Assembly (NCBI GenBank): GCA_005777315.1
Contig: SXMN01000367.1
Coordinates: 1-58,978, forward strand
DNA length: 58,978 nt
Reading direction: 5' to 3'
Source of the DNA: Verrucomicrobiales bacterium
GTDB taxonomy: Bacteria; Verrucomicrobiota; Verrucomicrobiia; Limisphaerales; F1-12-MAGs170
A program made the translations under genes and the position numbers. This document shows, one piece after another, positions 40,196 through 58,725 of the stretch. The first letter of the stretch is position 1. Every line of letters begins with the position of its first letter. Below the pieces are notes generated by a model, which saw only the letters and a list, made by a program, of their open reading frames with translations, did not search any database and was not told the DNA's origin.

Positions 40196-40305
40196 TTACC
40201 TACCGATGAAGCCCGCACTACCCCGCTACATCTGCCGGCGGAATCGCAACCCTTCCTACTCCCTACACCAAGAACTTGCCGGGGCCAGTAACTTTATTTG
40301 CAAAA

Positions 40306-40929: not shown

Positions 40930-41699
40930 ATGCGGTGCGCCTAATTCCCTGCCTCCTTCTCCAAGGAGAAAGATTGGTCAAGACGATCAAATTCAAATCA
41001 CCAACATATATCGGCGATCCGCGGAATGCTGTCCGGATATTCAACGACAAAGAGGCCGATGAGCTGGTGCTTCTTGATATTGATGCATCACGACACCGCA
41101 AGCAGCCGGACCCTGGTCTAATCTCGGAAATCATCAGCGAGGCATTCATGCCGGTGGCATTCGGCGGCTTCATCACAGACGTTGCCACGGCTCGGACATA
41201 TTTCAAAGTCGGGATGGAAAAGCTCGTTCTTAACTCCGCAATCGCCGACAATCATGAATTAGTGACTGAACTTGCGAAGGAGTTTGGTAGCCAGAGTATA
41301 ATGGCAAGTATCGATGCAAAACGCTCCTTGTTCGGATCCTACGCTGTTTTCACTCGAGGAGGCACTCAAAGGACCACTTGGACACCTGCTGATTTAGCTC
41401 GAAAGTATGAGGAAGCCGGAGCCGGGGAAATTCTAATAAACTCAATTGATCGCGATGGAACCCTGAGCGGATATGATCTCGAATTGGTAAAGGCCGTGAC
41501 CTCTAGCGTCACTATCCCGGTAATTTCATGCGGTGGAGCCAGGGGGGTGCAAGATTTTGAAACCGTCATCAGGGACGCGGGTGCCTCAGCCGCCTCAGCG
41601 GGAAGCTGTTTCGTGTTCCAAGGAAAACATCGTGCTGTCCTGATTTCATTCCCTACAGTGGCTGAACGTAAGCAATTGGCTTCCCGATGTCATCTCTAA
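40926..41699 (+). CDS. hisF: HisF-like cyclase subunit (glycan-locus paralog, WbuZ/HisF2 type)
   Basis: 257 aa. RLIPCLLLQGERLVKT...GDP...ADELVLLDIDAS. 4-nt overlap with hisH. Confidence 0.9.
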   Translation: MNAVRLIPCLLLQGERLVKTIKFKSPTYIGDPRNAVRIFNDKEADELVLLDIDASRHRKQPDPGLISEIISEAFMPVAFGGFITDVATARTYFKVGMEKLVLNSAIADNHELVTELAKEFGSQSIMASIDAKRSLFGSYAVFTRGGTQRTTWTPADLARKYEEAGAGEILINSIDRDGTLSGYDLELVKAVTSSVTIPVISCGGARGVQDFETVIRDAGASAASAGSCFVFQGKHRAVLISFPTVAERKQLASRCHL

Positions 41700-44151: not shown

Positions 44152-44191
44152 TTCGTTTTCGATCTTCAGCGTCTCGTGAGCATTTAATGAT

Positions 44192-45388: not shown

Positions 45389-45419
45389 TAGATCCAAACG
45401 ACTACAGCATAACGACGCT

Positions 45420-46475
45420 ATGATGCGCTTTGGTTTGATTGGATGCGGTGCCATCGCACGGCGGCACGCTGAATTGCTCGCAAATGAAAGCGTGTCCGGT
45501 GCGCGGCTTGTCGCGGTCTGTGACGCGAATGCCAGGCGCGCTGAAGAATTTGGTCAGCGATACGGAGTCAAAGCCTTCGGCACCATCGCCGAACTTCTGA
45601 ACGACGGGGTGGATGCAGTGACCGTACTTACGCCGAGCGGGATGCATGCGAGCCACGTGATGCAAGCGGCACCTCAATGCAAGGCTATCATCGTGGAAAA
45701 ACCGATGGCATTAACTCTGTCTGACGCGGATCGGATGATCGAAGCTTGCGACCGCCATTCTTCCCGGCTCTTCGTCGTGAAGCAAAATCGCTTCAATCGC
45801 CCTGTAATGGCCCTTCGGCAAGCGCTTGAAGCAGGCCGTTTCGGCAAACTCGTGATGGGCACGGTGCGGGTCCGATGGTGTCGGCACCAATCTTACTATG
45901 ATTCGGCCAGTTGGCGTGGCACATGGGCTCACGATGGTGGTGTTCTGGCCAATCAGGCCAGCCACCACATCGATCTGCTCGAGTGGATGATGGGAGAGGT
46001 GGAAAGCGTCTCCGCGATGTCCACTCGGGCGTTGGCGAAGATTGAAGCTGAGGACACGGCGGTCGCTGTTTTGCGCTTCCGCAGTGGGGCATTGGGAGTG
46101 GTGGAGGCCACCACCGCCGTCCGCCCAAAGGACTTGGAAGGCAGCCTTTCCATCATGGGCGAATTCGGAGCCGTGGAAATCGGTGGATTTGCGGTAAACA
46201 ACCTGAAGATATGGAACTTTGCGAATAACCACCCGGAAGATGGCACCGTATTCGATAAATTCGGTTCTAATCCAGACCATCCCTACGGCTATGGCCACGC
46301 AAAGTATTACGAGCATGTGGTTCAATGCTTGGCCGAGAACAAGCGCCAGTTGGTGGATGGACTGGAGGGCCGAAAAAGCCTGGAATTGATAACAGCCATC
46401 TACGAGGCGATTGAGTGCGGCCGGGAAGTTCAATTGAGGTTCAACCCAAAACGCTGTCGCTTGGGAATGGGCTGA
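45420..46475 (+). CDS. Gfo/Idh/MocA family sugar oxidoreductase (second WlbA/WbpB-like or GnnA-like enzyme)
   Basis: 351 aa. FGLIGCGAIARRH Rossmann motif and VEKPMALT motif. Confidence 0.9.
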   Translation: MMRFGLIGCGAIARRHAELLANESVSGARLVAVCDANARRAEEFGQRYGVKAFGTIAELLNDGVDAVTVLTPSGMHASHVMQAAPQCKAIIVEKPMALTLSDADRMIEACDRHSSRLFVVKQNRFNRPVMALRQALEAGRFGKLVMGTVRVRWCRHQSYYDSASWRGTWAHDGGVLANQASHHIDLLEWMMGEVESVSAMSTRALAKIEAEDTAVAVLRFRSGALGVVEATTAVRPKDLEGSLSIMGEFGAVEIGGFAVNNLKIWNFANNHPEDGTVFDKFGSNPDHPYGYGHAKYYEHVVQCLAENKRQLVDGLEGRKSLELITAIYEAIECGREVQLRFNPKRCRLGMG

Positions 46476-46479
46476 TCTT

Positions 46480-46950
46480 ATGGAGCCACTCATCAAGCAG
46501 GTGGGAATTGTAGATATCGAGTGCGGTGAAAAAGTCACCATCATCCAACCGGTCAATCTCTATGGCTGCAAGCTTGGGTCGGGTACTTTTGTTGGGCCGT
46601 TTGTCGAGATTCAGCGTAATGTGACTGTCGGGGAACGTTGTCGTATTCAGTCACACAGTTTTGTCTGCGAGCTGGTGACTATCGGCAATGACTGTGTCAT
46701 CGCCCATGGCGTCATCTTCATCAACGACTCGTTCAAGATCGGTGGACCGGCACAGGGCAACCGCAGCCTTTGGTCTGCCACACGTATTGGTAATCGTGTA
46801 TCGATCGGCTCAAACGCCACCATCCTGCCTGTGAGCATCTGCGATGATGTCGTGATAGGTGCCGGTTCCGTCGTCAGCAAAGACATCCTCAAGCCAGGCA
46901 TTTACGCGGGAAATCCGGCCAAGTTCATGCGCTCATTTACGCGGCCCTAG
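46480..46950 (+). CDS. hexapeptide-repeat (LbH) sugar N-acetyltransferase
   Basis: 156 aa with repeated [LIV]-G-x4 turns (IGNDCVIAHGVIF, IGNRVSIGSNATI, IGAGSVV). Confidence 0.85.
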   Translation: MEPLIKQVGIVDIECGEKVTIIQPVNLYGCKLGSGTFVGPFVEIQRNVTVGERCRIQSHSFVCELVTIGNDCVIAHGVIFINDSFKIGGPAQGNRSLWSATRIGNRVSIGSNATILPVSICDDVVIGAGSVVSKDILKPGIYAGNPAKFMRSFTRP

Positions 46951-46973
46951 TCGTTTAGAACTCCAAATCGCTC

Positions 46974-48074
46974 ATGCACGTTCCCTTCAACGATCTGGTC
47001 CTTCACCATGCTTCCCTGCAGCCGGCGCTTAACCAAGCCATCGCCAAGACGGTGGCCGAATCTTCCTTCATCCGAGGGCCCGAAGTGGACGCCTTTGAGA
47101 AGGAGTTCGCGACTCTGCACGGGGTCAAACACTGTGTCTCCTGTGCCAATGGCACCGATGCTCTCTATATTGCCATGCGCGCGCTGGGCCTCAAGCCAGG
47201 CGAGGAGGTGATCACGACCGCGCATTCCTGGATTTCCACCTCCGAGACAATCACCCAGGCGGGTGGATCGGTTGTCTTCTGCGACACGGATGCGGACACG
47301 TTTACCGTTGATCCGCAGCAAATCGAGGGCAAAATCACATCTCGAACACGAGGCGTCATCCCCGTCCACCTCTATGGCCAGGCGGCGGACATGGACCCGA
47401 TACTGGAGATTGCTCGTCGGCACAACCTTTGGGTCATTGAGGACTGTGCGCAGGCTCATCTGGCGACTTACAAGGGCCGAACTGTAGGCACTTTTGGCGA
47501 TGTGGCCACCTACTCCTTTTATCCCGGCAAGAACTTGGGGGCGATAGGCGATGCAGGGGGGATCTTGACCAATCGTGACGATCTCGCTTCTTGGATGACT
47601 ATGTTTGCCCGCCACGGCGGCAAGGGAGACCATTTGATTGAGGGAATGAACAGCCGCATGGATGGAATCCAAGGAGCCGTTCTGCGGGTAAAACTTCCGC
47701 ACCTCCAGAATTGGACTGAACGTCGGCGTCAAGTGGCTCAACACTACAATGAGTTGCTGGCTGGGGTAGGTGATTTGAGATTACCACAGGTAGCGGAAGG
47801 CCGCGATCATGTTTACCACCTTTATGTGGTGCGAACAAAACAGCGTGACGCGCTACGTGCGCACTTGAAAGGGCGTGGCATCGAAACTGTGCTGAACTAT
47901 CCCCGTGCTTTGCCATTTTACCCGGCTTACTCTTATCTAGATCACAAGCCAGAAGAGTTCCCCAACGCCTTCGAAAACCAGTCACGGATTCTTTCGCTGC
48001 CAATTTACCCGGAAATGCAGGTCGAAAAGATCCGCTATGTGGCTGAAAGCATTCGCTCATTTTATGGCCAGTAG
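46974..48074 (+). CDS. DegT/DnrJ/EryC1/StrS family sugar aminotransferase
   Basis: 366 aa. FIRGPEVDAFE, ANGTDALYIA, and PLP-Lys region YSFYPGKNLGAIGDAGG. Confidence 0.9.
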   Translation: MHVPFNDLVLHHASLQPALNQAIAKTVAESSFIRGPEVDAFEKEFATLHGVKHCVSCANGTDALYIAMRALGLKPGEEVITTAHSWISTSETITQAGGSVVFCDTDADTFTVDPQQIEGKITSRTRGVIPVHLYGQAADMDPILEIARRHNLWVIEDCAQAHLATYKGRTVGTFGDVATYSFYPGKNLGAIGDAGGILTNRDDLASWMTMFARHGGKGDHLIEGMNSRMDGIQGAVLRVKLPHLQNWTERRRQVAQHYNELLAGVGDLRLPQVAEGRDHVYHLYVVRTKQRDALRAHLKGRGIETVLNYPRALPFYPAYSYLDHKPEEFPNAFENQSRILSLPIYPEMQVEKIRYVAESIRSFYGQ

Positions 48075-48097
48075 TATCCTGTGAATTCAATTCCGAC

Positions 48098-49288
48098 GTG
48101 AATATCAGCGAAACTCAAAGATCAGACACAGAAGCTTTCCCCTCCAGTTTACTGAACCAGCGGAACTATCGAATCTGTACCCGCTGCGTCATGGATACCA
48201 GTGATCCGGGTATACAGTTTGACCCTCTTGGGGTCTGTCACCACTGCTCTCAGTATCTACGAAGGAGATCGGAAGAGCTGCCAGATCCCGAGAAGGCCCG
48301 CCAGATTCTTTCCGCTCTGGTTGAAGAAATGAAGCAGGAGGGGAAAGGCAAGGACTACGACTGTATTATCGGCCTGAGTGGGGGCGTGGACAGTTCCTAC
48401 GTTGCCTACCAAGTAGCGAATCTGGGACTCCGAGCGTTGGGTGTACATCTGGACAACGCTTGGAATTCTGAACCGGCGGTAGGAAACATCGAAAAGATTG
48501 TCAACAAGCTCGGTATCGACCTCTACTCACACGTCCTGCCTTGGGAAGAATTTCGAGGGCTACAGCGGGCTTTTTTCCGCGCTTCCGTCCCGAACTGTGA
48601 AGTGCCGACAGACCATGCGATTCTGGCCGTGCTGTTCGACACAGCTGCCAAGCATGGTGTGCGCTTTATCTTGAGCGGTTCCAATCTGGCAAGTGAGGGC
48701 ATCACTCTGCCGACGGCTTGGGGACGAGACTATCGAGATTGGACACACCTGAAAGCAATTCACCGAGTCTTCGGAGAGACTCCTTTGCAAAAGTTTCCAC
48801 GCCTGTCTTTGTCAAAATTGCTCTATCGCGTGTTTGTTAATCGGATTCGTTTCGTCCCAATCCTAAACTACATGCCCTATGTCAAGAACGACGCGATAGC
48901 GACATTGAAGTCGGAGCTGGGCTGGGCAGAATATGGGAGAAAGCACGGGGAGTCGATTTTCACTCGTTATTACCAGGAATATTATCTGCCGGTCAAATTC
49001 GGATATGACAAACGCCGTCTCCATTATTCGGTGCTGATCAACTCGGGCCAGATGACTAGGGCGGAGGCGCTCACCCAACTGGACAATCCCATGTTTTCTT
49101 CCGAAGAACTGGAAGAGGTGACTACTTTTTTCCTGAAAAAAATGATGTTTTCTCGTGAAGAGTGGCAAAGAATAATGTCTGCCCCCTGTAGGTCGCACAT
49201 GGATTATCCCACCAATTGGTGTTTTACCATGAGAGAATCCGGGGTCGCTCAGTTCGTCCGCCGGATGGCCACTTCGCGAAAAAACTGA
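48098..49288 (+). CDS. wbpG: N-acetyl sugar amidotransferase (WbpG/WbuX/PseA-like PP-loop enzyme)
   Basis: 396 aa. N-terminal Cys4 ribbon CTRCVMD...CHHC and PP-loop GLSGGVDSSYV. Lies in the same operon as hisH/hisF paralogs. GTG start. Confidence 0.8.
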   Translation: MNISETQRSDTEAFPSSLLNQRNYRICTRCVMDTSDPGIQFDPLGVCHHCSQYLRRRSEELPDPEKARQILSALVEEMKQEGKGKDYDCIIGLSGGVDSSYVAYQVANLGLRALGVHLDNAWNSEPAVGNIEKIVNKLGIDLYSHVLPWEEFRGLQRAFFRASVPNCEVPTDHAILAVLFDTAAKHGVRFILSGSNLASEGITLPTAWGRDYRDWTHLKAIHRVFGETPLQKFPRLSLSKLLYRVFVNRIRFVPILNYMPYVKNDAIATLKSELGWAEYGRKHGESIFTRYYQEYYLPVKFGYDKRRLHYSVLINSGQMTRAEALTQLDNPMFSSEELEEVTTFFLKKMMFSREEWQRIMSAPCRSHMDYPTNWCFTMRESGVAQFVRRMATSRKN

Positions 49289-49451
49289 TCCCATTGAAAC
49301 AGCCCGTTGATTGAGGCCTCATGCTTGGGGGGAAGCTCCGCACACACGTGATCTTCCCGCAAAAAGGCGATGATAAGAGTGATCTAACCAGCACAACCAG
49401 ACCTCGTGCGATATATTATTAAGATCTTCACCCACCTCCACCTGCCGATCC

Positions 49452-50228
49452 ATGGAAGAACGCAAACTCATTGAGGCCGATTTTCACGACCGGAGAGCGC
49501 GCGACAAACAAGCCGCTTCGCTTCGCGAATTCGAGTCAAAGTACCCCAACAAGAAACTCTATGCTGTTACCCGAGATCACCGGAAACGCATTGACGCCTG
49601 GATTGCGCAGTGGTGCCCCGGCTCCGTAGCGCTCGACTTCTGCTGCGGTGAGGGAGAGGGTGCCATCAAGATGAGTAAAGCGGGGGCGGATGTCCACGGG
49701 ATTGACATCAGCGCGGATTCACTCGCCACTGCTACTGAATCCGCTAGGCACTTGACCAAGCCGCCTGCCTTCAAGGTAATGGACGCGGAGAACCTCGAGT
49801 TCCCGGATAACTATTTTGATGTCGTATACGCTGCGGGATGCTTCCACCACCTTGATCTTTCTAAGACATACCAGGAGTTGCATCGAGTTCTGAAGCCCGG
49901 CGGGCGGGTCATGTGCAACGAGTCGCTAGCGCACAATCCAGTTTTCCACTTTTACAGAAGAAAGACCCCCCACTTGCGCACCCCGTGGGAAGTGCCGCAT
50001 ATCCTCCGAGTAGCTGATGTGATGCGAGCAGGCGAGTTTTTTGGCAAGATCGATATCCGGTATCATTATCTCTTCTCTTTGGCCGCGGTGCCCCTGCGTC
50101 GAACTGCATTGTTCAACACCGTCCTCAGCATCCTCGAAAAGGTGGATCGTTTAGTTCTGTCCGTTCCTGGAGTGCAACGAATGGCGTGGCAATGCACATT
50201 TGAGCTCTCCTTGCCCAAGAAGAAGTGA
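49452..50228 (+). CDS. class I SAM-dependent methyltransferase
   Basis: 258 aa. ALDFCCGEGEG motif I and LKPGGRVM. Confidence 0.85.
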   Translation: MEERKLIEADFHDRRARDKQAASLREFESKYPNKKLYAVTRDHRKRIDAWIAQWCPGSVALDFCCGEGEGAIKMSKAGADVHGIDISADSLATATESARHLTKPPAFKVMDAENLEFPDNYFDVVYAAGCFHHLDLSKTYQELHRVLKPGGRVMCNESLAHNPVFHFYRRKTPHLRTPWEVPHILRVADVMRAGEFFGKIDIRYHYLFSLAAVPLRRTALFNTVLSILEKVDRLVLSVPGVQRMAWQCTFELSLPKKK

Positions 50229-51472
50229 TGCGGATTTGGCTCTTCAAGGATGGTGAATCGTTGCCTGTTGAACTCAAAAGCCGACGAATGCGTACGGGCA
50301 TGCTTGCCGAGGAATTGCGGCGGCGCGGGCACGAAGTCCACTGGTTTTCGAGCACGTTTCTTCATCACAGGAAGGTTCTTCACGCGTCGTCGGATCTGCG
50401 CACTGAACCTTCCACAGGGTTGACGCTGCATCTACTACACGCCGGGCAATTCCAGCGGAACCTTTCTTACGCGAGGTATGCGTTCTACCAACGCTACGCG
50501 AAAAAAATCAGATCGTATTGCGCGCAGCAGACGCCTCCCGATGTAGTGGTTTGTTCATTTCCACTGATTGATGTAGCCATGCACATCGTTACTTGGGGTA
50601 AGCAAAGGGGGATCCCCGTCATTTTGGATGTGCGAGATCTTTGGCCCGATACGATTCTTGATATTTTCCCCCGGTGGGCGAGATCGGTGGCACGCTGGGC
50701 TCTGAGGGCAGATTTCAAAAATACGCAGCATGCCATGGCGCACGCGACCTGCCTCTGCGCCATGTCAAACGGCGTGCTGAAATGGGGGCTGAATTATGCC
50801 AGACGAGAACGAGGTTCTTGGGACCGAGTGATACCTATCGGCTATCCGACCTTGGATTTGGTCCGACAGACCTCGATCTGTGTCCCGGCATTACTTGCTC
50901 CGCTTCAAGGACGACGAATCTTCAGTTACGTTGGTACTTTTGGCCACACTTACGACCTTCCGCTGCTAGCTCAGGTCGCACACGAGTTGGAAGCCTTGTC
51001 ACGAAGGGATGTGGGTCTGGTACTGGCTGGAAACGGTCCGTTACTGGAAAGAATCCGGCATCAGGTTAAGGGTCTGAGTAACGTGGTCCTCACGGGATGG
51101 ATCGACGTCACTGAGATTGGCGAGGTGCTCTCAAGAACGACAGCTGGTCTGCTTCCTTGGAACTCCATCAATGACGCGATGCCAAACAAATTTTTTGAAT
51201 ATATTGCTGCTGGGCTTCCTGTGATTGCATCTGCCGAAGGAGAACTAAATAACCTGATTGACACAGAGCACATCGGGCTTTGCTACCAAAAGGGGCAATC
51301 CGCTGAACTCCTCCGGGCTATCTTAAAACTGGCGGACGAAACCGATTTTCAGAAAGGCTGCGCCAAACAAGCATCTGACCTTTTCACGCGCAGGTTTCGT
51401 GAGGATGCGGTGTATGGGGTATATGCGGACTACGTCGAGGAAGTAGCTGCCGCCCCCGCCCTCTCCAATTGA
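50225..51472 (+). CDS. glycosyltransferase, GT-B fold (family 4-like)
   Basis: 415 aa. C-terminal PNKFFEYIAAGLPVIAS region. 4-nt overlap with the upstream gene. Confidence 0.85.
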   Translation: MMRIWLFKDGESLPVELKSRRMRTGMLAEELRRRGHEVHWFSSTFLHHRKVLHASSDLRTEPSTGLTLHLLHAGQFQRNLSYARYAFYQRYAKKIRSYCAQQTPPDVVVCSFPLIDVAMHIVTWGKQRGIPVILDVRDLWPDTILDIFPRWARSVARWALRADFKNTQHAMAHATCLCAMSNGVLKWGLNYARRERGSWDRVIPIGYPTLDLVRQTSICVPALLAPLQGRRIFSYVGTFGHTYDLPLLAQVAHELEALSRRDVGLVLAGNGPLLERIRHQVKGLSNVVLTGWIDVTEIGEVLSRTTAGLLPWNSINDAMPNKFFEYIAAGLPVIASAEGELNNLIDTEHIGLCYQKGQSAELLRAILKLADETDFQKGCAKQASDLFTRRFREDAVYGVYADYVEEVAAAPALSN

Positions 51473-51483
51473 GCGTGCCGCGT

Positions 51484-52404
51484 ATGGAATACACCCGATT
51501 GGGACAGACCGGACTTGCGGTTTCGCGAATCTGCTTTGGATGCGCAGCGATCGGAGGCTATGATTATGGTCCTGTGGAAGATGCGATCAGCATCGGAGCG
51601 ATCCATAAGGCGTTGGACTTGGGCATCAACTTCTTTGACGTGGCAGACGTGTATGGATTCGGCCATGCCGAATCAACATTGCAGAAAGCCCTGGGTGCCC
51701 GGGTCAATCAACTGGTGATTGCAACGAAATTTGGAGTTCGCTGGAGCGCAGAAGGTGAGACTATGCGTGACATTTCACCGGCCCATCTTCGGCGCGCCTT
51801 GGAGGGTTCCTTGCGGCGACTGGGTTGTGACTCGATCACCCTCTATCAAGTGCATTGGCCTGACCACCAAACTTCCTTGGAGGATGCAGTCGCAACGTTA
51901 GCTGAATGTCAGCAAGCGGGAAAAATCCGGCACTTTGGTGTGTGCAATCTCACAGGGGAGGATGTGCGTTCCTGCCAAAAGATAGCACGTTTGGAAAGCT
52001 TGCAGATACCTTTCTCCCTAGCCGAGCGCCAGAACACAGGGTTGATTCAGATTGCCGCTCGGGAGCATTTCATGACGGTTATGGTCTACAATGCATTGGC
52101 CCACGGCCTTTTCTCAGGCAAGTATAACCGTGAATCCGTTTTTTCGGGCACGGACTTGCGTGCCCGAGTAAAGCTCTTCCAAGGGGAGGCTTTCGAAAAT
52201 GCCCTTGAACTCCTGGACCGGATCAGGCAAGTCGCTTCCACGACAGGCAAGACATGCACCCAAGTGGCCTTGAACTGGACCCTTTCTCAATGTGGCGTAA
52301 GTTCCGTGATCGTGGGTACAAAGAGCGCGTCCCAAATTGAAGACAGCGTTGCAGCGATTGAGTTCCGGTTGGATGCTGAACAGCTAAAGCAACTGAGCGC
52401 CTGA
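51484..52404 (+). CDS. aldo/keto reductase
   Basis: MEYTRLGQTGLAVSRICFGC... with the D/Y (FDVADVYG), K (ATKFG) and H (QVHWPD) tetrad. Alternative upstream start at 51469. Confidence 0.9.
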   Translation: MEYTRLGQTGLAVSRICFGCAAIGGYDYGPVEDAISIGAIHKALDLGINFFDVADVYGFGHAESTLQKALGARVNQLVIATKFGVRWSAEGETMRDISPAHLRRALEGSLRRLGCDSITLYQVHWPDHQTSLEDAVATLAECQQAGKIRHFGVCNLTGEDVRSCQKIARLESLQIPFSLAERQNTGLIQIAAREHFMTVMVYNALAHGLFSGKYNRESVFSGTDLRARVKLFQGEAFENALELLDRIRQVASTTGKTCTQVALNWTLSQCGVSSVIVGTKSASQIEDSVAAIEFRLDAEQLKQLSA

Positions 52405-52414
52405 CATTTGATTT

Positions 52415-53461
52415 ATGATTACAACCGATGACAGTCATCATCTTGGGAAACTGGCCGATTCCAATAGCTACTGGGATCCCATTAATATCGATGGGGAAGA
52501 TCCACGTGAACTGCTGGATCAGCTTCGTCTCATGGTCCTGATTCGTTGCGCCGAGGAGCGGATTGGGGAGGGGTTTGGGAAAGGAGTTATTCGCTGTCCT
52601 TGTCACTTGGTCATAGGACAGGAAGTGCCGGCAGTGGGTCTCGCGAGCCGAATCCAAAAGGGAGACAAGGTATTCGGAGCCCATCGTTCGCATGCCCATT
52701 ATTTGGCGCTTGGTGGTGACTTGCGTAAACTTTTAGCGGAAGTGCTGGGACGTGACACCGGTTGTTCCAAAGGTATGGGTGGATCAATGCATTTGATCGC
52801 CTTGGAACAGGGCCTCTACGGAACCGTTCCAATCGTTGGGGCTACAATTCCGATTGCTGCAGGTGCCGCGCTGGCCGCCAAACTAGATAAGTCGGATTCG
52901 GTGGTGGTGAGTTTCCTTGGGGACGGTGCTACAGAGGAAGGTGTTTTTCACGAAACGTTAAACTTCGCATCAAACTTTCAACTGCCTGTCGTTTTTGTCA
53001 TAGAGAACAACCTTTTTGCTAGCCATCTTCATATGAGCCTCCGCCAGCCGTTTGACTCGACTTGTCGCTTTGCCCAAGCTCACGGGGTTTCTTGGCAACG
53101 AGTGGATGGTAACGACTTGGTGGCCATGAAACGCGCTTCGTCGCTGGCTGTTTGCCAAGCCCGAGCAGGTGCAGGCCCCCAGCTAATTGAGGCGGTCACC
53201 TATCGCTGGAGAGGGCATGTGGGTGACCGCGAGGATCAAGACGTGGGAGTTGCAAGGAAGGAAGGATTGGAAAGCTGGAAGAAACGTGACCCGATCCAAC
53301 GACTGGCTTTGGCATTGGAAACCAGTGGTCGCCTTGATGAAGGGATGCTTCAAGACATGCGGAAGAAGTCTCAAACTGTGGTAGCGGAGGCTTGGGAACA
53401 AGCTAGGCTGGATCCTTTCCCAGCCGCTGAAGCACTACTCGACCGAGTCTATTTCAAGTGA
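52415..53461 (+). CDS. ThDP-dependent 2-oxoacid dehydrogenase E1 component, alpha subunit-like
   Basis: 348 aa. Canonical GDGATEEGVFHETLNFASNFQLPVVFVIENN ThDP motif. Confidence 0.9.
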   Translation: MITTDDSHHLGKLADSNSYWDPINIDGEDPRELLDQLRLMVLIRCAEERIGEGFGKGVIRCPCHLVIGQEVPAVGLASRIQKGDKVFGAHRSHAHYLALGGDLRKLLAEVLGRDTGCSKGMGGSMHLIALEQGLYGTVPIVGATIPIAAGAALAAKLDKSDSVVVSFLGDGATEEGVFHETLNFASNFQLPVVFVIENNLFASHLHMSLRQPFDSTCRFAQAHGVSWQRVDGNDLVAMKRASSLAVCQARAGAGPQLIEAVTYRWRGHVGDREDQDVGVARKEGLESWKKRDPIQRLALALETSGRLDEGMLQDMRKKSQTVVAEAWEQARLDPFPAAEALLDRVYFK

Positions 53462-53465
53462 AGAA

Positions 53466-54458
53466 ATGCAGCGTATGACTAATTATGGCACTGCCATCAG
53501 GGACGGATTCGTGTACCTCTTGGCTAATCATCCAGAAGTATTTACCATAGGCCAGGGGTTGTGGAGTCCTTGGTACGTTGGGAATAGCATGACCAACCTT
53601 GATAAAGAATTCGGAAAAGAGCGAGTGATTGACACTCCCGTTTCCGAGTTGGCATGCACTGGCGCAGCCTTGGGAGCGGCACTGGCAGGCAAACGCCCTA
53701 TTGTTATCCACCCCAGAGTTGACTTCGCGCTACTCGCTATCGATCAGATCGTGAACCAGGCCGCTAAATGGTGCCATATGTTCGGGGGGCAAGTTAGTGT
53801 GCCTTTGACCATCAGGGCTATAGTCAATCGTGGTGGAGAGCAAGGAGCCCAACACTCTCAGTCTCTCTACTCATGGTTTGCCCACATCCCAGGGTTGCGG
53901 GTCATCCTGCCTGCCACAGCATCAGACGCGCGTGACCTGCTCGTCGCCAGCGTACTGGGTCGAGATCCAGTCCTCTACATTGACGATCGATGGCTCTATG
54001 AACAGGAAGAAGAGCTGGCTCCAATTCAGATCCTTGATCTGCGTCGCGAGGGTCCTCGACAAACCAGCAAGGGCGAAGACATTACCCTCGTAGGTGCCAG
54101 TTACGCCAGCTTGTTGTGCAAAAAGGCGGACCAGGAACTCAGGAGGAACCACGGAGTGACTTGTGACGTCTTCGACTTGCGGGTCATTAACCCTTTGAAC
54201 TGCGAGACGATTGTCGAGTCTGTTCAGCGCACTGGTCGCCTGTTGGTTGTCGACTGTGACTGGTCGAGTTGCGGACTTGCTGCTGAGGTGATTGCGCAGG
54301 TTGCTGAATGTGTCGAACCGGCAGTGTTGCGATGCCGCCCCGCACGAGTGACCCTTCCGGACGCACCGGCACCTACCAGCTCGGCGCTCGAATCAGCCTA
54401 CTATCCGAAGATGACGACAGTAGTTGAGCGAGCCATGTCCCTGCTAAAGAAAGTCTGA
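53466..54458 (+). CDS. 2-oxoacid dehydrogenase E1 component, beta subunit-like (transketolase-type Pyr and C-terminal domains)
   Basis: 330 aa. DTPVSELACTGAALGAALAG... pattern. 4-nt gaps to both neighbours. Confidence 0.9.
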   Translation: MQRMTNYGTAIRDGFVYLLANHPEVFTIGQGLWSPWYVGNSMTNLDKEFGKERVIDTPVSELACTGAALGAALAGKRPIVIHPRVDFALLAIDQIVNQAAKWCHMFGGQVSVPLTIRAIVNRGGEQGAQHSQSLYSWFAHIPGLRVILPATASDARDLLVASVLGRDPVLYIDDRWLYEQEEELAPIQILDLRREGPRQTSKGEDITLVGASYASLLCKKADQELRRNHGVTCDVFDLRVINPLNCETIVESVQRTGRLLVVDCDWSSCGLAAEVIAQVAECVEPAVLRCRPARVTLPDAPAPTSSALESAYYPKMTTVVERAMSLLKKV

Positions 54459-54462: not shown

Positions 54463-55209
54463 GTGATCAAGCGTGCTCTAGACATTGGGCTGTCTTTGAT
54501 GGCTTTGTTTTTGGCCGCACCGTTTCTCGGAGCGGCCATGGTAGCAATATGGCTGCAAGACTTCCAATCTCCGGTGTACTTAGCGCGGAGGGTCGGCAGG
54601 AATGGAGCACCCTTCTGGATGTTCAAGCTCCGCACTATGATACCTAATGCAGACCGCAATGGAGTGGACTCCACGTCCATGTCCGACCCACGATTGACTC
54701 GCGTCGGGCGTATTATACGCAAAGTAAAGATCGACGAGATACCACAATTCATCAACGTACTAATCGGTGATATGTCTTTGGTTGGCCCACGCCCAAACGT
54801 CGAAACTGAAACTCGCTATTACACGGCAGTGGAGCAGCGGATGTTGAACCTCCGGCCTGGCATCACAGACATCTCTTCCATCGTATTTTCGGACCTAAAT
54901 CAGATATTAAAAAGTTCCACCAATGCAAATCTCGATTACAGCAGGTATGTCCGTCCTTGGAAGTCCCGTCTAGCATTGCTCTATGTCGATTGCGCCAGTC
55001 TCGATTTGGATATTAAACTAATACTTTTGACAGCCTTGGCTGCAATTTCTAAGTCAAGATCCCTGCAGTTTTTGCAGCTAATCGTCCGCGAACTGGGAGG
55101 CGACGAACAACTTTGCAGAATCGTAGCGCGGCAAGAAGCATTGCCAACTTTCCCGCCGCCTGGCCGCGATACAATTGTCACCGAGGATGAGATTAGAAGA
55201 GGAAACTGA
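54463..55209 (+). CDS. bacterial sugar transferase, small monotopic phosphoglycosyl transferase (PglC/EpsL/WbaP C-terminal type)
   Basis: 248 aa. KRALDIGLSLMALFLAAPF..., FKLRTM, DPRLTRVGRIIRKVKIDEIPQFINVLIGDMSLVGPRP. GTG start. Confidence 0.9.
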   Translation: MIKRALDIGLSLMALFLAAPFLGAAMVAIWLQDFQSPVYLARRVGRNGAPFWMFKLRTMIPNADRNGVDSTSMSDPRLTRVGRIIRKVKIDEIPQFINVLIGDMSLVGPRPNVETETRYYTAVEQRMLNLRPGITDISSIVFSDLNQILKSSTNANLDYSRYVRPWKSRLALLYVDCASLDLDIKLILLTALAAISKSRSLQFLQLIVRELGGDEQLCRIVARQEALPTFPPPGRDTIVTEDEIRRGN

Positions 55210-55239: not shown

Positions 55240-56460
55240 GTACTTCGTCAGGCATCAAATGAGGGGTAAAGTTTCTTGAGTTTGCCGCGGGCTTCTTGAG
55301 TGGTGAAGCGCCAGTTGATCTTACAGGCGGGATGATCGCGACGCTTTGTCCAAGCGCCCACTTCCTCCCGCAGGAGGTTCCAGTCTCCGATCCGGCGGTC
55401 TAGGCATTGCCGGTTGAGCACGCTCAATTCAATCTCCGCGATGTTGAGCCAACTGCCATGCTTGGGAGTGTAGTGAAACTCAAAACGTTCCAACAGCCGC
55501 CGGGCGGTGGCCGGTTCAAATGCTTCGTAGAGTGAGGCGGCGGCGTGGGTGTTGAGGTTGTCCTGGACCAGCACGATTTTCTCCGCCGCGGGAAAGTGTT
55601 CCTCGGCCAAGGCGCGCAAGCACTGGGCGTAATCGACACGGGTCTTGCGTTCCCGCACGCTCACTTCCCTCCAGCCCACCAGAGGCGCGCACATCATGAA
55701 CAGACTGGCCACGCCGTGCCGTTCATATTCGTAATCTTCACTGAGGGGTCGGCCCGGCACCGCCGGCAAAGGCAGGCGGGTTTCTTGGACCAGTTGTTTG
55801 GTGGTTTCGTCCAGGCACACCAACGGACGCTTGGGGTCCTCAGGCTGTTGATAGACTTCCAGCACGTCCTCCATCCGGCAGACAAACTCCGCGCTGGCCG
55901 TCGGGGCGATGCACCACTGACGCTTGCGCCAAGGCTTGATCTCGTTGGTCTGCAGCGTCTGGCGCACGGTTTCGTGGGAGATGGAGTCAACGACCTCCAG
56001 TTCGACCAACCGGTCGGCCAGCAGGCGCAGCGTCCAACGCGCACAGCCGGCTGGAGGCGCTCCACACGCTTCGGCAATGAGGCGGGCTTCAGCGGCCCCA
56101 TCCAGGCGGCGCTCATATTCCCGCTCGGGAGCTTTGCGCTCCAAGGCTCGGTCCAACCCTTCTTCCACACAGCGTCGGCGCACACGTTGGACCGTGGCGA
56201 GGGAGATCTCGACCGCTGCGGCAATGTCCAGGTCACACAGGCCACCCTCAGGCCCGTTCTCGTCGGCTTTGAGCAGGATGCGGGTGTGCGATTGACGTGC
56301 CGTCGCACATCGCTGCTTGCGGAGAATGTTCATCAACTTTTCTCGTTCCTGAGGAGCTAGCCGGATGCGGTATTTAATAGGCATCCACTCCAATTAGACA
56401 TGCTTATCAAAAGTACAAGTACAAATTTATCCACCCACCAACTCACGGTTGACGAAGTAA
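55240..56460 (-). mobile_element. IS630-family insertion sequence (1221 bp)
   Basis: Terminal inverted repeat core TACTTCGTCA (55241-55250) / TGACGAAGTA (56450-56459). Flanking TA at 55238-55239 and 56461-56462. Single DDE transposase ORF inside. Confidence 0.8.
55248..56393 (-). CDS. IS630 family transposase
   Basis: 381 aa. N-terminal HTH region and the DDE region VLVQDNLNTH...HYTPKHGSWLNIAEIELS. Confidence 0.9.
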   Translation of the reverse strand: MEWMPIKYRIRLAPQEREKLMNILRKQRCATARQSHTRILLKADENGPEGGLCDLDIAAAVEISLATVQRVRRRCVEEGLDRALERKAPEREYERRLDGAAEARLIAEACGAPPAGCARWTLRLLADRLVELEVVDSISHETVRQTLQTNEIKPWRKRQWCIAPTASAEFVCRMEDVLEVYQQPEDPKRPLVCLDETTKQLVQETRLPLPAVPGRPLSEDYEYERHGVASLFMMCAPLVGWREVSVRERKTRVDYAQCLRALAEEHFPAAEKIVLVQDNLNTHAAASLYEAFEPATARRLLERFEFHYTPKHGSWLNIAEIELSVLNRQCLDRRIGDWNLLREEVGAWTKRRDHPACKINWRFTTQEARGKLKKLYPSFDA

Positions 56461-56464
56461 TAGG

Positions 56465-56911
56465 ATGTTCATGGATGACGTCAGCAGCGCTCCTCTCGGT
56501 TTTCTGCTGGCAGCATTGGCTCTCTGGACTGCAGCCTCGTATGGTGGGTGGTTGCTGCTGCCGCTCGGATTGCTTCACGCGAACTTCGTCCTTGATACGG
56601 CGGTTACATTGATTCGCCGCATCGCTCGTGGGGAGCGTTGGTACGCGCCGCACCGTGAGCATTTTTATCAGCGCCTTGTACGTGCTGGGAAGAGTCACTC
56701 TTGGGTTACAGGGTGGGAGGCAGGCTTGCAGGTTCTTGCTTTGTTGTTGTTGTTGGCTTCGTTGCAAGCAGCTCTTTTGGTCCAAGCATTCCTCTATCTG
56801 AGCGTGGTCCTACTTTGGCTCGGCTTCTTTGCCTACGCGGAAGTGGTTTTCCGTAGATCGCAGGCAATAGAAAGCTCTGCTTCAGCCCATTCCAATGCCC
56901 CAGCCGTCTAG
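56465..56911 (+). pseudogene. C-terminal fragment of a WbpL/WecA (MraY-family, GT4) polyprenyl-phosphate HexNAc-1-P transferase
   Basis: 148-aa ORF starting at the (N)FMDD... motif position and containing NFVLDTAVTLIRRIARGERWYAPHREHFYQRL, typical of WbpL-like C-termini. The ~190 N-terminal residues are absent. Confidence 0.65.
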
Positions 56912-58064
56912 GGTTTCGCTACAACGCATACTACTTTCGGTCCCTCACCTGAGTGGAAAGGAGAGTCGTTATGTTCAGGAGGCACTACATACCGGGTGGG
57001 TATCTACTGTTGGGCCGAGCGTCTCGGCGTTGGAGCAGGAATTCTCAACACTTGCAAAACTCCCGACACTAGCATTGAGCAGCGGTACCGCAGCAATTCA
57101 CCTTGGGCTCAGATTGTTCCGCTTGCGGCCCGATGATGAAGTCATTTGTCCAACACTCACCTTCGTTGCGAGTTGCAACCCGATTCTTTATGAAGGATGC
57201 AAACCTGTTTTCGCGGACAGTGATCGGGAGTCTTGGAACATCGATCCTCAGCGACTTTCCGATACTCTTGGGCAGCGAGCCCGCTCCAACAAGCTCCCGA
57301 AGGCGGTCATCGTGGTGCATTTGTTCGGATTGAGTGCCGACATCGGAAACATACTTGAAATTTGCCGCCGTTACGAGATTCCAGTCCTCGAAGATGCTGC
57401 GGAAGCTCTTGGCGCTACTCACAAAGGGGAACTTGTAGGAACTTTTGGGGATGTCGGTGCGTTTTCGCTTAACGGAAACAAGGTGATAACCAGCGGTGGC
57501 GGCGGCTTGCTCGTCTCACCTAGGAAGGACTGGGTGGACAACGCCCGCCATTGGAGTCAGCAGGCGTGCGATCCGAGCAGTGATGGAAACTACCTTCACT
57601 CTCAAACTGGATACAATTACCGCATGAGCAATGTTCTCGCTGGCATCGCGCGAGGACAGCTTGAGGTGCTGCATGAGCGAGTTGAGGCTCGCAGGGCCAT
57701 TTCTTTTCGGTATAGGGATGCATTGTTGGATGTGCCGGGGCTGGAATTCATGCCTCAGCCGGCGGATGCACGCCATCTCAACTGGCTCAGTTGTTTTCTT
57801 ATCGATGAGGCATTGTTTGGTTGTGACCAAGCTGCGTTGATCAGATTTCTCGATACTGCAAACGTTGAAACTCGCCCTGTTTGGAAACCGATGCACACAC
57901 AGAAACTATTTGAACGATACGAATGCGTCGGGGGCGAAGTGGCTGAGGATCTGAATCGTCGCGGCATCTGTTTGCCGAGTTCGAGTTCGTTGTCGCAAGA
58001 GGATCAGCAGTTCGTCATCGATCGCATTCGCGAAGCGCATTTGAGGGCAACCGGAAAGTGGTAG
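56895..58064 (+). CDS. DegT family aminotransferase, EpsN/PglE type
   Basis: 389 aa. LSVPHLSGKESRYVQEALHTGWVSTVGPSV... and PLP-Lys region FSLNGNKVITSGGGG. Confidence 0.9.
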   Translation: MPQPSRVSLQRILLSVPHLSGKESRYVQEALHTGWVSTVGPSVSALEQEFSTLAKLPTLALSSGTAAIHLGLRLFRLRPDDEVICPTLTFVASCNPILYEGCKPVFADSDRESWNIDPQRLSDTLGQRARSNKLPKAVIVVHLFGLSADIGNILEICRRYEIPVLEDAAEALGATHKGELVGTFGDVGAFSLNGNKVITSGGGGLLVSPRKDWVDNARHWSQQACDPSSDGNYLHSQTGYNYRMSNVLAGIARGQLEVLHERVEARRAISFRYRDALLDVPGLEFMPQPADARHLNWLSCFLIDEALFGCDQAALIRFLDTANVETRPVWKPMHTQKLFERYECVGGEVAEDLNRRGICLPSSSSLSQEDQQFVIDRIREAHLRATGKW

Positions 58065-58071: not shown

Positions 58072-58725
58072 GTGGCCAAGCTTATCATCATCGGTGCTGG
58101 TGGATTCGGGCGTGAAGTTTTGGAGTGGGCGCTCGACCAACAGGCCGAAAGTTCCGTTTGGAAGGTGATTGGATTTCTGGATTCCAATCCGCATGCCTTG
58201 AATCATTTTGATTGCGATCTGCCAATCCTTGGATCTCCCGAGTCGTTTGCACCTTCACCGAGCCATCTGTTTGTTTGTGCCATCGGAAATCCCGCGGTGC
58301 GCCTGCGAATCGCCGAAATGCTGAGTGCGCTTGGAGCGGCGTTCACTAATGTCATTCATCCATCCGCCTATGTAAGTCGTCGATGCCGCATCGGCGTCGG
58401 TTGTATCATTTGTCCGGGAGCGATCATTTCAGCAAATGCAACTCTGGGAAACCACGTCGTCTTGAACATGCACGGCACGGTCGCCCACGACTCAGTTCTC
58501 GCCCATGGTGCTACTCTTGCCTGTCACGCGGACGTGACCGGCGCTGCCGTTCTGGAACGTGGCGCGATGCTGGGCAGCCATGCCAGTGTCATGCCGCGCG
58601 TGCGCGTTGGTACGTTCGGAATGGTTGGTGCCGGAAGCGTGGCCTACAAGGATGTTCCTCCGCACACCACAGTGGTCGGCGTGCCTGCGCGTCCAGTGCC
58701 TTCGGACAAGCACTCTCGGTTATGA
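58072..58725 (+). CDS. NeuD/PglD/EpsM family sugar N-acetyltransferase (LbH)
   Basis: 217 aa. N-terminal Rossmann-like KLIIIGAGGFGREV plus C-terminal hexapeptide repeats. GTG start. Confidence 0.85.
   Translation: MAKLIIIGAGGFGREVLEWALDQQAESSVWKVIGFLDSNPHALNHFDCDLPILGSPESFAPSPSHLFVCAIGNPAVRLRIAEMLSALGAAFTNVIHPSAYVSRRCRIGVGCIICPGAIISANATLGNHVVLNMHGTVAHDSVLAHGATLACHADVTGAAVLERGAMLGSHASVMPRVRVGTFGMVGAGSVAYKDVPPHTTVVGVPARPVPSDKHSRL

Follow-up and report, generated by a model that had tools for sequence, protein, structure and literature searches.

A widespread E1αβ gene module of glycan loci with a probable role in two-carbon branching of the first sugar of cell-surface polysaccharides

Gene organization of the locus

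We analysed a stretch of 58,978 nt (hereafter, the window), which is the 3'-terminal part of a MAG contig of 83.6 kb (GCA_005800335.1). Its glycan locus includes a gene for a class I SAM methyltransferase (49452..50228, +; Pfam Methyltransf_11, 1.8e-23), which is probably a tailoring enzyme of the module described here, and a gene for a GT4-family glycosyltransferase (50225..51472, +; Pfam Glyco_trans_1_4, Glycos_transf_1 and Glyco_trans_4_4). Directly 3' of the latter lies an aldo-keto reductase (AKR) gene (51469..52404, +; Pfam Aldo_ket_red PF00248, 4.7e-66). The AKR ORF from 51469 opens with TTG, and its likely true start is the ATG at 51484, which is also the start in the NCBI record (306 aa); counted from the TTG, the AKR overlaps the GT4 gene by 4 nt, whereas the ATG leaves 11 nt between them. 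After 10 nt follows the gene for an E1α-like ThDP-binding subunit (52415..53461, +; E1_dh PF00676, 1.8e-63), after 4 nt that for an E1β-like subunit (53466..54458, +; Transket_pyr PF02779, 8.9e-24, and Transketolase_C PF02780, 2.9e-20), and after another 4 nt that for a small monotopic, PglC-like phosphoglycosyl transferase (PGT; 54463..55209, +; Bac_transf PF02397, 3.5e-47). These coordinates and Pfam matches confirm a preliminary description in which AKR, E1α and E1β were packed with short gaps between a glycosyltransferase and a priming transferase; all three genes are intact.

The closest solved structure to the PGT is the diNAcBac-1-P transferase PglC (8g1n, 2e-21). The AKR is closest to solved structures of the AKR11 type (3n2t and YhdN, 1pz1), and its tetrad D57/Y62/K87/H129 is invariant in 36 relatives. 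Eleven loci have the AKR next to E1αβ, and 7 have it next to a split transketolase. An orthologous methyltransferase gene stands next to AKR-E1αβ in two other loci (60% identity in L089 and 42% in L003), members of three methyltransferase clusters lie no more than 6 kb from E1αβ (in 12, 8 and 4 subfamily loci), and related GT4 genes were found in 9-10 subfamily loci.

The E1αβ pair belongs to a clade apart from E2-linked E1s

The ThDP motif of E1α, which had been reported as intact, is indeed so (G169-D170-G171 ... N198-N199) and is invariant across the subfamily. H64 and H268 of E1α, and E61 (the catalytic Glu) and H130 (the His) of E1β, are all conserved; every residue that E1s use for ThDP activation and reductive acylation is kept in the pair. 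The best matches among solved structures are human PDH E1α and E1β (~1e-47). The retained residues and these matches fit a conventional E1 of a pyruvate, acetoin or branched-chain 2-oxoacid dehydrogenase whose E2/E3 are encoded elsewhere in the genome, and which could, for example, provide acyl-CoA for glycan acylation. We consider this very improbable, because the phylogeny, the gene neighbourhood and the sequence of the pair all speak against it. E1α scores 286 bits against TIGR03182 (PDH E1α) and E1β 225 bits against PRK09212, under the equivalog cutoffs of 394 and 321 bits, respectively. In E1β, a loop close to the active site, Q30-G-L-W-S-P-W-Y-V-G39, replaces the canonical E-D-V-G-x-x-G-G-x-F in a clade-specific manner.

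We compared 46 clade loci with 37 control E1 loci at 36-43% identity. In trees built by neighbour joining (NJ) only, from 621 columns, the glycan-locus E1αβ formed a clade apart from the E2-linked E1s with a bootstrap of 200/200. Grouping with E2-partnered E1s, which the preliminary description had named as evidence against its proposal, is thus not what was found. E1β identity is at least 51% within the clade (49% in L100, a metagenome locus added later) and at most 38% to sequences outside it. Not a single clade locus contains E2, which was found in 33 of the 37 controls (p=4e-19; this and the other co-occurrence counts and p values include loci that are not phylogenetically independent), and E3 shows the same pattern (0/46 versus 31/37). 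A tblastn search of the whole window with Pfam-verified E2/E3 probes taken from the control loci gave a best match of only E=0.16, so the earlier statement that the window holds no E2 or E3 stands. The description of the pair as an orphan does not, as its clade is spread over more than 10 phyla, streamlined genomes included. The E1αβ pair is part of a widespread, conserved gene module that had not been described before.

Conserved neighbourhood of the module

A PGT gene lies within 5 kb of E1αβ in 42 of the 46 clade loci and in none of the 37 E2-linked E1 loci (p=2e-19), and a PglF-type UDP-GlcNAc 4,6-dehydratase is encoded in 16/46 and 0/37, respectively. Given these PGT counts and the distribution of E2, the packing of E1αβ with the AKR in a glycan locus is not due to chance. 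The presence of pairs of this clade in PGT/PglF modules across so many phyla is a further point against a dehydrogenase E1. It also means that the module supplies exactly the kind of keto-sugar that had been postulated earlier. In the nearest relative, L089, the gene order is PglE-like, methyltransferase, AKR, E1α, E1β, PGT, PglF.

The gene beside E1αβ encodes a DegT aminotransferase (hereafter DegT*) in 33/46 loci and an AKR in 7/46, and no locus has both. The remaining 6 loci have neither; in each of them, the sequence breaks off less than 700 nt upstream of E1α. On the E1 tree, the AKR loci do not form a single group (0/200), and pairings of an AKR locus with a DegT locus as sisters have bootstraps of 200/200 and 190/200. 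AKR and DegT* have thus been exchanged at least three times beside E1αβ. This mutual exclusion on a mixed tree makes the two enzymes look like interchangeable processors of one carbonyl. Furthermore, a split transketolase fills the E1αβ slot in 7 PGT-AKR-PglF loci, which points to a ThDP-dependent C-C step coupled to the AKR. A transketolase never uses E2, and its ability to stand in for the pair also argues against a dehydrogenase E1. We infer the coupling of AKR to E1 from these arrangements; about 5 loci (L095, L103/104, L106, L110 and L120) have a PGT-AKR pair with neither PglF nor a ThDP enzyme less than 6 kb away, indicating that the AKR lineage can work without a ThDP enzyme. No aldolase or other recurrent family that might build a longer donor was found in the subfamily loci; a simple donor, for example pyruvate, is therefore more likely.

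Proposed function

The AKR, E1α, E1β and PGT, probably together with the upstream methyltransferase, may act as one cassette for the synthesis of a modified priming sugar, a reading that we give about an even chance. In our best model, which we hold with equal reserve, an E2-independent ThDP carboligase would acetylate C4 of a UDP-4-keto-6-deoxy-HexNAc, the AKR would reduce the product, and the PGT would prime the repeat unit with it. Which donor and acceptor are used, in what order the steps run and what they yield are proposals drawn from gene content and sequence. A PglF-type dehydratase, as found in relatives, would convert UDP-GlcNAc to UDP-2-acetamido-2,6-dideoxy-hexos-4-ulose. The α2β2 E1-like enzyme, acting without E2 or lipoate, would use ThDP to decarboxylate a small 2-oxo acid (most likely pyruvate), and the hydroxyethylidene carbanion would add to the C4 ketone to give a tertiary alcohol with a 4-C-acetyl branch. 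Since this attack consumes the ring ketone, the branch carbonyl would be the sole carbonyl remaining, and the AKR, proposed to be NADPH-dependent, would reduce it to a 1-hydroxyethyl group with NAD(P)H. The methyltransferase may add a methyl group, and the PglC-like PGT would start the repeat unit by placing the sugar-1-phosphate, its first residue, on undecaprenyl phosphate. The dedicated DegT* of most relatives would instead produce a 1-aminoethyl branch, and in others the split transketolase would replace E1αβ and lead to a hydroxyacetyl-derived branch. Against this model, the literature searched yielded no glycan with a 4-C-(1-hydroxyethyl)-HexNAc.

The loci in which a PGT-AKR pair lacks a ThDP enzyme imply an AKR substrate that E1 does not make, and the AKR lies outside the Pau7 subfamily discussed below. 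Both points suit another assignment of steps, possible but unlikely in our view, in which E1αβ is still an E2-independent carboligase on the priming sugar and AKR or DegT* acts on the ring C4 ketone or another carbonyl. Reaction at the ring ketone would give QuiNAc/FucNAc-type or 4-amino sugars; the branch would stay acetyl or be processed otherwise, and the ThDP step could hit a different carbon or a lipid-linked sugar. Consumption of the ring ketone by AKR or DegT*, however, would leave no sugar carbonyl as an acceptor for E1αβ. DegT* is also only distantly related to PglE/PseC-type 4-aminotransferases (1e-28 and 1.5e-26, versus 7e-75 for WbpE), and the strict alternation of AKR and DegT*, together with the position of the AKR within an AKR-[E1 or transketolase]-PglF block, fits a role after the ThDP step.

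We regard it as quite unlikely that the pair makes or attaches a substituent other than a branch, either as a substitute for PglD that decorates a 4-amino sugar at N4 or a 4-hydroxy sugar at O4, or as the source of a small acyloin, to be reduced or aminated before it is joined to the glycan. The E1αβ slot is exactly the PglD slot of PglF-E-D-C pathways, PglD-like N-acetyltransferases are almost missing from DegT*-type modules (hexapeptide acetyltransferases lie within 5 kb in just 3/46 loci), and in S. magneticus pDMC1 a kinase and a nucleotidyltransferase accompany other E1αβ-DegT pairs. Against this, making an acyl-ThDP donor out of a 2-oxo acid calls for an oxidant, for example lipoamide, and the loci encode none. 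The AKR-type modules L003, L040, L026 and L032 have no aminotransferase match within ~7 kb of E1αβ, and the recurrent families of the loci include no ligase or transferase that would attach a small substituent. DegT enzymes normally require a nucleotide- or cyclitol-bound substrate. Carboligation at C4 followed by reduction of the branch stays our best model.

Substrate supply at the locus

In the window, the PGT gene is followed by an IS630-type transposase gene (55248..56393, -; Pfam DDE_3, HTH_32 and HTH_29), at the place where L089 has PglF (Polysacc_synt_2, 4e-115) directly after the PGT. Next to it, a WecA/WbpL-type (Glycos_transf_4) transferase gene is left as a truncated C-terminal piece (56465..56911, +). 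This ORF has no Pfam match of its own; over its first 82 residues it aligns with the end of L012:15585-16643(-), starting near residue 217 of that 352-aa PF00953 protein (3e-35). Then come genes for a LegC/PglE-type sugar 4-aminotransferase (56895..58064, +; TIGR04181, 7.7e-106, 354 bits) and a PglD/NeuD-type N-acetyltransferase (58072..58725, +; PglD_N and Hexapep; TIGR03570, 3.9e-59, exceeding its cutoff), and the contig ends ~250 nt later. The 4-aminotransferase is 27% identical to DegT* and has a 49%-identical homolog in L089; in both loci, it would form a parallel branch off the same 4-keto intermediate and compete for it, a point against the model.

No sugar 4,6-dehydratase or PglF-like gene was found within the 58,978 nt. 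With the IS630 element and the truncated gene after the PGT, this means that the cassette may lack its substrate supply, or that the dehydratase lies beyond the contig end. The former would make the cassette a decaying remnant, in which the insertion cost the dehydratase and truncated the transferase, leaving intact genes that are currently without a substrate. We see a slim chance of this, because AKR, E1α, E1β and PGT are full-length and keep every catalytic residue, and PglF may lie just past the nearby contig end. It would in any case bear on present activity and not on the identity of the module.

Comparison with known systems

The closest parallel is paulomycose biosynthesis in Streptomyces, where an E1α/E1β-like ThDP pair without E2/E3, Pau11/Pau12, also occurs with an AKR, Pau7 (PMC4753412, PMC4802897). 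Pau11/Pau12 (also Plm8/Plm9, described with AviB1/B2 in PMC4802897) are proposed to attach an acetyl group from pyruvate as a branch to C4 of an NDP-4-ketosugar, a likeness to our pair that is drawn by description, and Pau7 reduces the branch attributed to them to 1-hydroxyethyl (PMC4753412). Paulomycin, however, is an actinomycete antibiotic whose pathway uses a dTDP-2,6-dideoxyhexose, whereas we propose a UDP-HexNAc that primes a surface glycan. The AKR5I enzyme Pau7 acts on the glycosylated antibiotic (PMC4753412), and our AKR is AKR11-like; thus, the parallel is an analogy and not an orthology. AviB1/AviB2 (avilamycin eurekanate), EvdU5/EvdS3 (everninomicin) and the aldgarose E1 pair are likewise PDH-E1-like heterodimers without E2/E3 in sugar pathways and, again compared by description, are implicated by genetic or hypothetical evidence in two-carbon branching of 4-ketosugars, but they belong to secondary metabolism and have no PGT, PglF or DegT*-type partner. 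As of 2023, E1-type sugar branching had not been reconstituted in vitro, and EvdU5/EvdS3 were named as 'future work' (PMC10338323).

For cell-surface glycans, YerE/YerF (yersiniose A), ErwE/ErwF (erwiniose) and MyGE (mycobacterial branched sugars) join a 2-oxoacid-derived unit to a nucleotide sugar by ThDP-dependent acyloin addition at its C4 ketone, and a reduction with NAD(P)H comes next; acetyl branches are later modified by reductases, transaminases or oxygenases (PMC9306805). YerE-type enzymes differ from E1αβ in being single-chain and acetolactate-synthase-like, their acceptor is a CDP-3,6-dideoxy-4-ketohexose, and their reductases are not AKRs of our type; no YerE-like gene lies at the locus. 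Canonical heterotetrameric 2-oxoacid dehydrogenase E1s share with the pair the fold, domain set, ThDP/Mg motif and catalytic Glu and His, but fall in another clade and in most control loci have E2/E3 nearby, while our pair is sub-cutoff, lies in a glycan locus and has the remodelled β loop. The PglF-PglE-PglD-PglC pathway of di-N-acetylbacillosamine shares its PglF-type start and PglC-type end with the module, and the window too carries PglE- and PglD-like genes; in the module, the PglE/PglD tailoring steps would be taken by E1αβ and the AKR or DegT*, which is not PglE-like.

The preliminary description had read E1αβ and the AKR as installing a branch and then reducing it, and this is partly supported. 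The separate clade, the absence of E2/E3 from its loci, the PglF/PGT setting, the Pau7 precedent and the transketolase swap favour it; the usual DegT partner, the ThDP-less PGT-AKR loci, the lack of a 4,6-dehydratase in the window and an actinomycete E1 precedent that is itself genetic or proposed (PMC10338323) limit the support. Taken together, the gene neighbourhoods suggest that the module most likely adds a two-carbon branch and, if so, this branch would be placed on the first sugar of a cell-surface polysaccharide.

The E1αβ and aldo-keto reductase genes of a probable priming-sugar cassette

An aldo-keto reductase (AKR) and the two subunits of a thiamine diphosphate (ThDP)-dependent enzyme (E1α and E1β) are encoded on the plus strand between two genes of the same strand, that of a GT4 glycosyltransferase (50225-51472) on the left of AKR and that of a phosphoglycosyl transferase (PGT; 54463-55209, 248 aa) on the right of E1β. 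The AKR gene (51469-52404; PF00248 Aldo_ket_red, 4.7e-66), whose likelier start, also the one called by NCBI, is the ATG at 51484, is followed by those of E1α (52415-53461; PF00676 E1_dh, 1.8e-63) and E1β (53466-54458; PF02779 Transket_pyr and PF02780 Transketolase_C). Gaps along AKR-E1α-E1β-PGT are 10, 4, and 4 nt, confirming the tight packing reported in the preliminary description. The ThDP/Mg2+ motif GDG(X)~26NN, also reported there as GDG...NN, was found unbroken in E1α (G169-D170-G171...N198-N199). Catalytic residues E61 and H130 in E1β and H64 and H268 in E1α are conserved. The domains, the motif, and the catalytic Glu identify E1α and E1β as members of the heterotetrameric ThDP-dependent E1 superfamily. 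AKR belongs to the aldo-keto reductase superfamily, as shown by its domain and its Asp-Tyr-Lys-His tetrad (D57/Y62/K87/H129), which is unchanged across 36 aligned relatives. Its nearest relatives among solved structures and NCBIfam models, YhdN, IolS, and YdjG, are AKR11-like. The best solved-structure match of PGT (PF02397 Bac_transf, 3.5e-47) is PglC (8g1n, 2.3e-21); judged from its sequence, PGT is a small monotopic PglC-like phosphoglycosyl transferase consisting of a stand-alone Bac_transf domain, and its sugar specificity is putative.

Separation of E1αβ from dehydrogenase E1s

Metagenomes are rich in E1α homologs with 59-69% identity, which annotation pipelines label pyruvate or acetoin dehydrogenase. 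We compared the window with 80 loci obtained by a scan of species-representative genomes (handles L001-L121 denote the loci compared in this work). The loci split sharply into 46 glycan loci including the window, with at least 44% (E1α) and at least 51% (E1β) identity to the window pair, and 37 control loci, with 36-43% (E1α) and at most 38% (E1β). The 46 loci formed a clade in 200 of 200 bootstraps of a tree of concatenated E1α and E1β, built, like all trees here, by neighbor joining only. In the controls, the gene after E1β encoded a lipoyl E2 in 7 of the 10 ORFs examined with Pfam, and E2 and E3 were present in 33/37 and 31/37 loci, respectively. Neither was found in any of the 46 clade loci, searched at the locus level only (p ~1e-17 to 1e-19; these p values and all co-occurrence counts given here are not phylogenetically independent). 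The window itself was said to lack E2 and E3, and Pfam-verified probes from the control loci bore this out: the best tblastn hit over the 58,978 nt had E=0.16. E1α scored 286.5 bits, below the cutoff of 393.85 of the pyruvate dehydrogenase (PDH) E1α equivalog TIGR03182, and E1β fell below both NCBIfam PDH cutoffs (PRK09212, 224.7 vs 321 bits; PRK11892, 218.7 vs 454 bits). Grouping with E2-partnered E1s, which the preliminary description had named as evidence against its sugar-branching proposal, was checked in this way, and the pair was placed in its separate clade instead. E1αβ is probably an E2-independent ThDP enzyme belonging to the priming-sugar pathway.

Clade members also differ from canonical proteins in sequence. 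The E1β loop Q30-G-L-W-S-P-W-Y-V-G39 (window positions 53553-53582) is clade-specific, and canonical E2-linked E1β has E-D-V-G-x-x-G-G-x-F. This loop aligns with residues 28-37 of human E1β, and an alignment to 1W85_B was also obtained. Further E1β residues, including N121 and D157, are found only in the clade; at these positions, Gly is universal (100%) among the canonical sequences. We take the region at 30-39 to border the active site; if so, its remodelling would fit a changed acceptor. The loop and the clade-only residues could be used as an annotation signature for such pairs.

Three E2-less E1αβ pairs lie outside the clade and are about 40% identical: L087 (S. magneticus pDMC1, 8958-10981), L088 (Azospirillum thermophilum, 9007-11044), and L086 (S. 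griseofuscus pSGRIFU1, 10986-13032). Two of them adjoin DegT, SDR, kinase, or nucleotidyltransferase sugar genes. The Streptomyces pair, L086, lies in a PKS/NRPS region beside genes for a condensation-domain protein and an ACP and shows no link to a sugar pathway. A tblastn search of plasmids found only pairs of at most 42% identity.

A conserved module with exchangeable partners

PGT lies within 5 kb of E1αβ in 42 of the 46 clade loci and in none of the 37 controls. A UDP-GlcNAc 4,6-dehydratase of PglF type is present in 16/46 and 0/37, respectively, many contigs being truncated. Clustering of the module neighbours gave PGT, DegT aminotransferases, methyltransferases (three clusters, in 12, 8, and 4 loci), PglF, glycosyltransferases, and AKR as the only recurrent families. 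No family of YerE type (single-chain, acetolactate-synthase-like) recurs among these clustered neighbours, nor does an aldolase or other donor-building enzyme. The latter absence makes pyruvate, or another simple donor, the likeliest.

The neighbour of E1αβ is a DegT aminotransferase of one particular subfamily in 33 loci (e.g., L001, 8883-9992), mostly 52-88% identical across phyla, and AKR in seven: the window, L003 (DG1235), L026, L032, L040 (Prochlorococcus SS51), L041, and L057. The two never occur together, and the six loci with neither are all cut less than 700 nt upstream of E1α. The window pair, presented at first as an orphan, is therefore a minority (AKR) variant of a widespread cassette. 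The AKR loci do not cluster on the E1 tree (monophyly in 0/200 bootstraps), and AKR and DegT loci form sister pairs in 200/200 and 190/200. This indicates at least three swaps between AKR and the aminotransferase. The aminotransferase retains the catalytic Lys185, which rules it out as a 3-dehydrase. We also rejected the idea that it is an ordinary PglE, as it matches WbpE, DesV, and QdtB at ~1e-73 to 1e-75 vs 1e-28 for PglE. It is 27% identical to the PglE-like enzyme of the window, and loci of this type hardly ever contain a PglD-type acetyltransferase.

The module is found in more than 10 phyla, including Verrucomicrobiota, Gemmatimonadota, Planctomycetota, several classes of Proteobacteria, Prochlorococcus, SAR86, and acI Actinobacteria. 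Among the carriers are streamlined genomes from the sea and from fresh water (L040, Prochlorococcus marinus SS51; L043, SAR86; L044, Planktophila). L032 is on a contig binned as a Micrarchaeota MAG, which could reflect lateral transfer or a binning error.

As a reciprocal test, we scanned metagenomes starting from AKR. The nearest relative, L089, has the order PglE-like, methyltransferase, AKR, E1α, E1β, PGT, PglF (Polysacc_synt_2, 4e-115). PGT-AKR modules with E1αβ and then PglF were found in L100 and L114, and in L098 the contig stops after E1β. In seven loci (L093, L094, L112, L113 at 7066-8841, L115, L116, and L121), the position of E1αβ is taken by a split transketolase, that is, Transketolase_N followed by Transket_pyr and Transketolase_C. 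Where the contig is long enough (L113 and L115), the order is TylF-type methyltransferase, PGT, AKR, the two transketolase genes (N, then C), PglF. A two-subunit ThDP enzyme, either E1αβ or transketolase, thus adjoins 18 of ~23 PGT-linked AKRs. In about five PGT-AKR loci (L095, L103/104, L106, L110, and L120), neither a ThDP enzyme nor PglF lies within 6 kb. We therefore rejected the view that this AKR is a lineage dedicated to E1 partners, because PGT-AKR also occurs with a split transketolase or without any ThDP enzyme.

A protein of ~554 aa is encoded after AKR in ThDP-less loci (L103, 7224-8888; homologs in L095, L104, L106, and L110) and recurs in the DegT-type loci L007, L008, L017, and L018. 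We considered it as a hidden ThDP enzyme and rejected this: relaxing the Pfam threshold to E=1 brought no match, and other glycan loci carry the protein too, so a membrane protein of glycan assembly is its probable identity.

The surrounding glycan cluster

The cassette ends a glycan cluster at ~27-55 kb of the window whose genes are all on the plus strand and encode a TviC-like epimerase, a nucleotide-sugar dehydrogenase, several DegT aminotransferases, a methyltransferase, and GT4 enzymes. The region 38267-49288 holds a complete gene set for a sugar of the 2,3-diacetamido-mannuronic-acid type, probably with an acetamidino group: an AsnB-type amidotransferase (38267-40195), HisH/HisF-like genes (40276-41699), a UDP-GlcNAc 2-epimerase (43069-44151), a WbpB/WbpD/WbpE-like trio (45420-48074), and a WbuX amidotransferase (48098-49288). 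A second, fused WbpB-WbpD-like protein is encoded at 35229-36863. The plus-strand glycan genes are broken off between 31.7 and 34.0 kb, and a Schlafen AlbA_2/HATPase_c_4 gene at 32013-33128 may be a regulatory or defence gene that was inserted there. GC content is 0.48-0.55 over the glycan cluster (34000-50000) vs 0.58-0.61 at 1-10000, consistent with horizontal acquisition. A PSCyt/PSD1 protein encoded in the window, together with the closest E1 relatives, points to a source in the PVC (Planctomycetota-Verrucomicrobiota-Chlamydiota) group.

Directly after PGT, where L089 has PglF, there is an IS630-type transposase gene on the minus strand (55248-56393), followed by a C-terminal remnant (~135 aa) of a WecA/WbpL-type Glycos_transf_4 protein (56465-56911). 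The cluster was thus rearranged or truncated at 55248-56911. An exact-match search found no inverted repeats flanking the IS630. Beyond the remnant lie a LegC/PglE-type aminotransferase and a PglD-type acetyltransferase, and the contig ends 250 nt further on. No PglF-type 4,6-dehydratase is present within the 58,978-nt window, where the sequence following PGT is broken by the IS element and then by the end of the contig. The PglE/PglD pair of the window would compete with E1αβ for one and the same intermediate.

Proposed reaction and relation to known systems

ThDP enzymes of the E1 superfamily need a carbonyl acceptor. From the gene content, we infer that the acceptor in this module would be the PglF product, UDP-2-acetamido-2,6-dideoxy-hexos-4-ulose. 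A pyruvate-derived carbanion would attack the C4 ketone, giving a tertiary alcohol and an acetyl branch. The only carbonyl remaining would then be on the branch, where AKR would reduce it, and PGT would load the product as primer of the repeat unit. Such a sole carbonyl on the branch would make a reductase and an aminotransferase alternative, mutually exclusive neighbours. Likewise, attack on a C4 ketone would allow another C2-transferring ThDP enzyme to stand in for E1αβ, and modules with the split transketolase would give a hydroxyacetyl-derived branch. We regard C4 acetylation by E1αβ followed by AKR reduction as evenly poised between right and wrong; its weak points are the dehydratase missing from the window, the cassette abutting an IS element, the competing PglE/PglD pair, and the PGT-AKR loci without a ThDP enzyme. 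The broader proposal is put forward more tentatively: a modular system of more than 10 phyla may exist in which E1αβ or a split transketolase branches UDP-4-keto-6-deoxy-HexNAc, AKR or DegT converts the branch carbonyl to a hydroxyl or an amine, respectively, and PGT installs this first sugar.

The closest analogue of the module is the paulomycin trio. Pau11 and Pau12 are E1-like and were proposed to install a C4 acetyl branch, and the AKR Pau7 was shown to reduce that branch (PMC4753412, PMC4802897). Judged by its nearest relatives, the module AKR is AKR11-like and probably distinct from Pau7, which is AKR5I. Membership of the AKR5 family requires more than 40% identity to AKR5 members (PMC4753412). 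AviB1/B2 and EvdU5/S3 are pairs of the same kind, which are unvalidated biochemically, C-branching not having been demonstrated in vitro (PMC10338323). Pairs of the AviB1/AviB2-Pau11/Pau12 type, of which the window pair is a candidate member, lack E2/E3 and sit in a deoxysugar pathway making an NDP-4-ketosugar. In the clade, E2/E3 are absent and a PglF-type dehydratase adjoins the pair in 16/46 relatives and in L089, although not in the window. The characterised branching enzymes of surface glycans are single-chain ThDP enzymes of YerE/ErwE type acting on CDP-3,6-dideoxy-4-ketohexose, and acetyl branches undergo later change by reductases, transaminases, or oxygenases (PMC9306805). Unlike the acetolactate-synthase-like YerE, the window enzyme is of the two-subunit E1 type. 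Compared with these systems, the module stands out by an E1-type enzyme in the setting of a surface-glycan priming sugar, a predicted UDP-HexNAc scaffold, and its aminotransferase and transketolase variants. In the literature on E1 pairs in bacillosamine, PGT, or O-antigen loci, we found no description of the module, and that on Coxiella/virenose, transketolase/O-antigen, and shewanellose gave no genetic link.

Significance of the module

If the model holds, E1-type (PDH-like) sugar C-branching would for the first time be linked to glycans of the cell surface, and for the first time have a UDP-HexNAc priming sugar as its acceptor. The module, which cultured organisms carry, is compact and easily cloned, and its substrate would be readily made from PglF and UDP-GlcNAc. 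E1-type branching, long unvalidated for AviB1/B2, EvdU5/S3, and Pau11/12, would thereby become directly testable. An annotation rule would also follow, namely that E1αβ beside a small PGT is not a pyruvate or acetoin dehydrogenase, despite current pipeline labels. The exchanges between AKR and DegT and between E1 and transketolase offer a naturally occurring set of tools for glycoengineering and ThDP biocatalysis. The model also predicts that new branched amino-sugars stand at the reducing end of the repeat unit in abundant environmental bacteria, including marine picocyanobacteria, with implications for phage receptors, resistance to grazing, and the annotation of glycans. The broader system, if true, would produce a family of N-acetyl-hexosamines that carry hydroxyethyl, aminoethyl, or dihydroxyethyl branches at C4 and are undescribed in any glycan.
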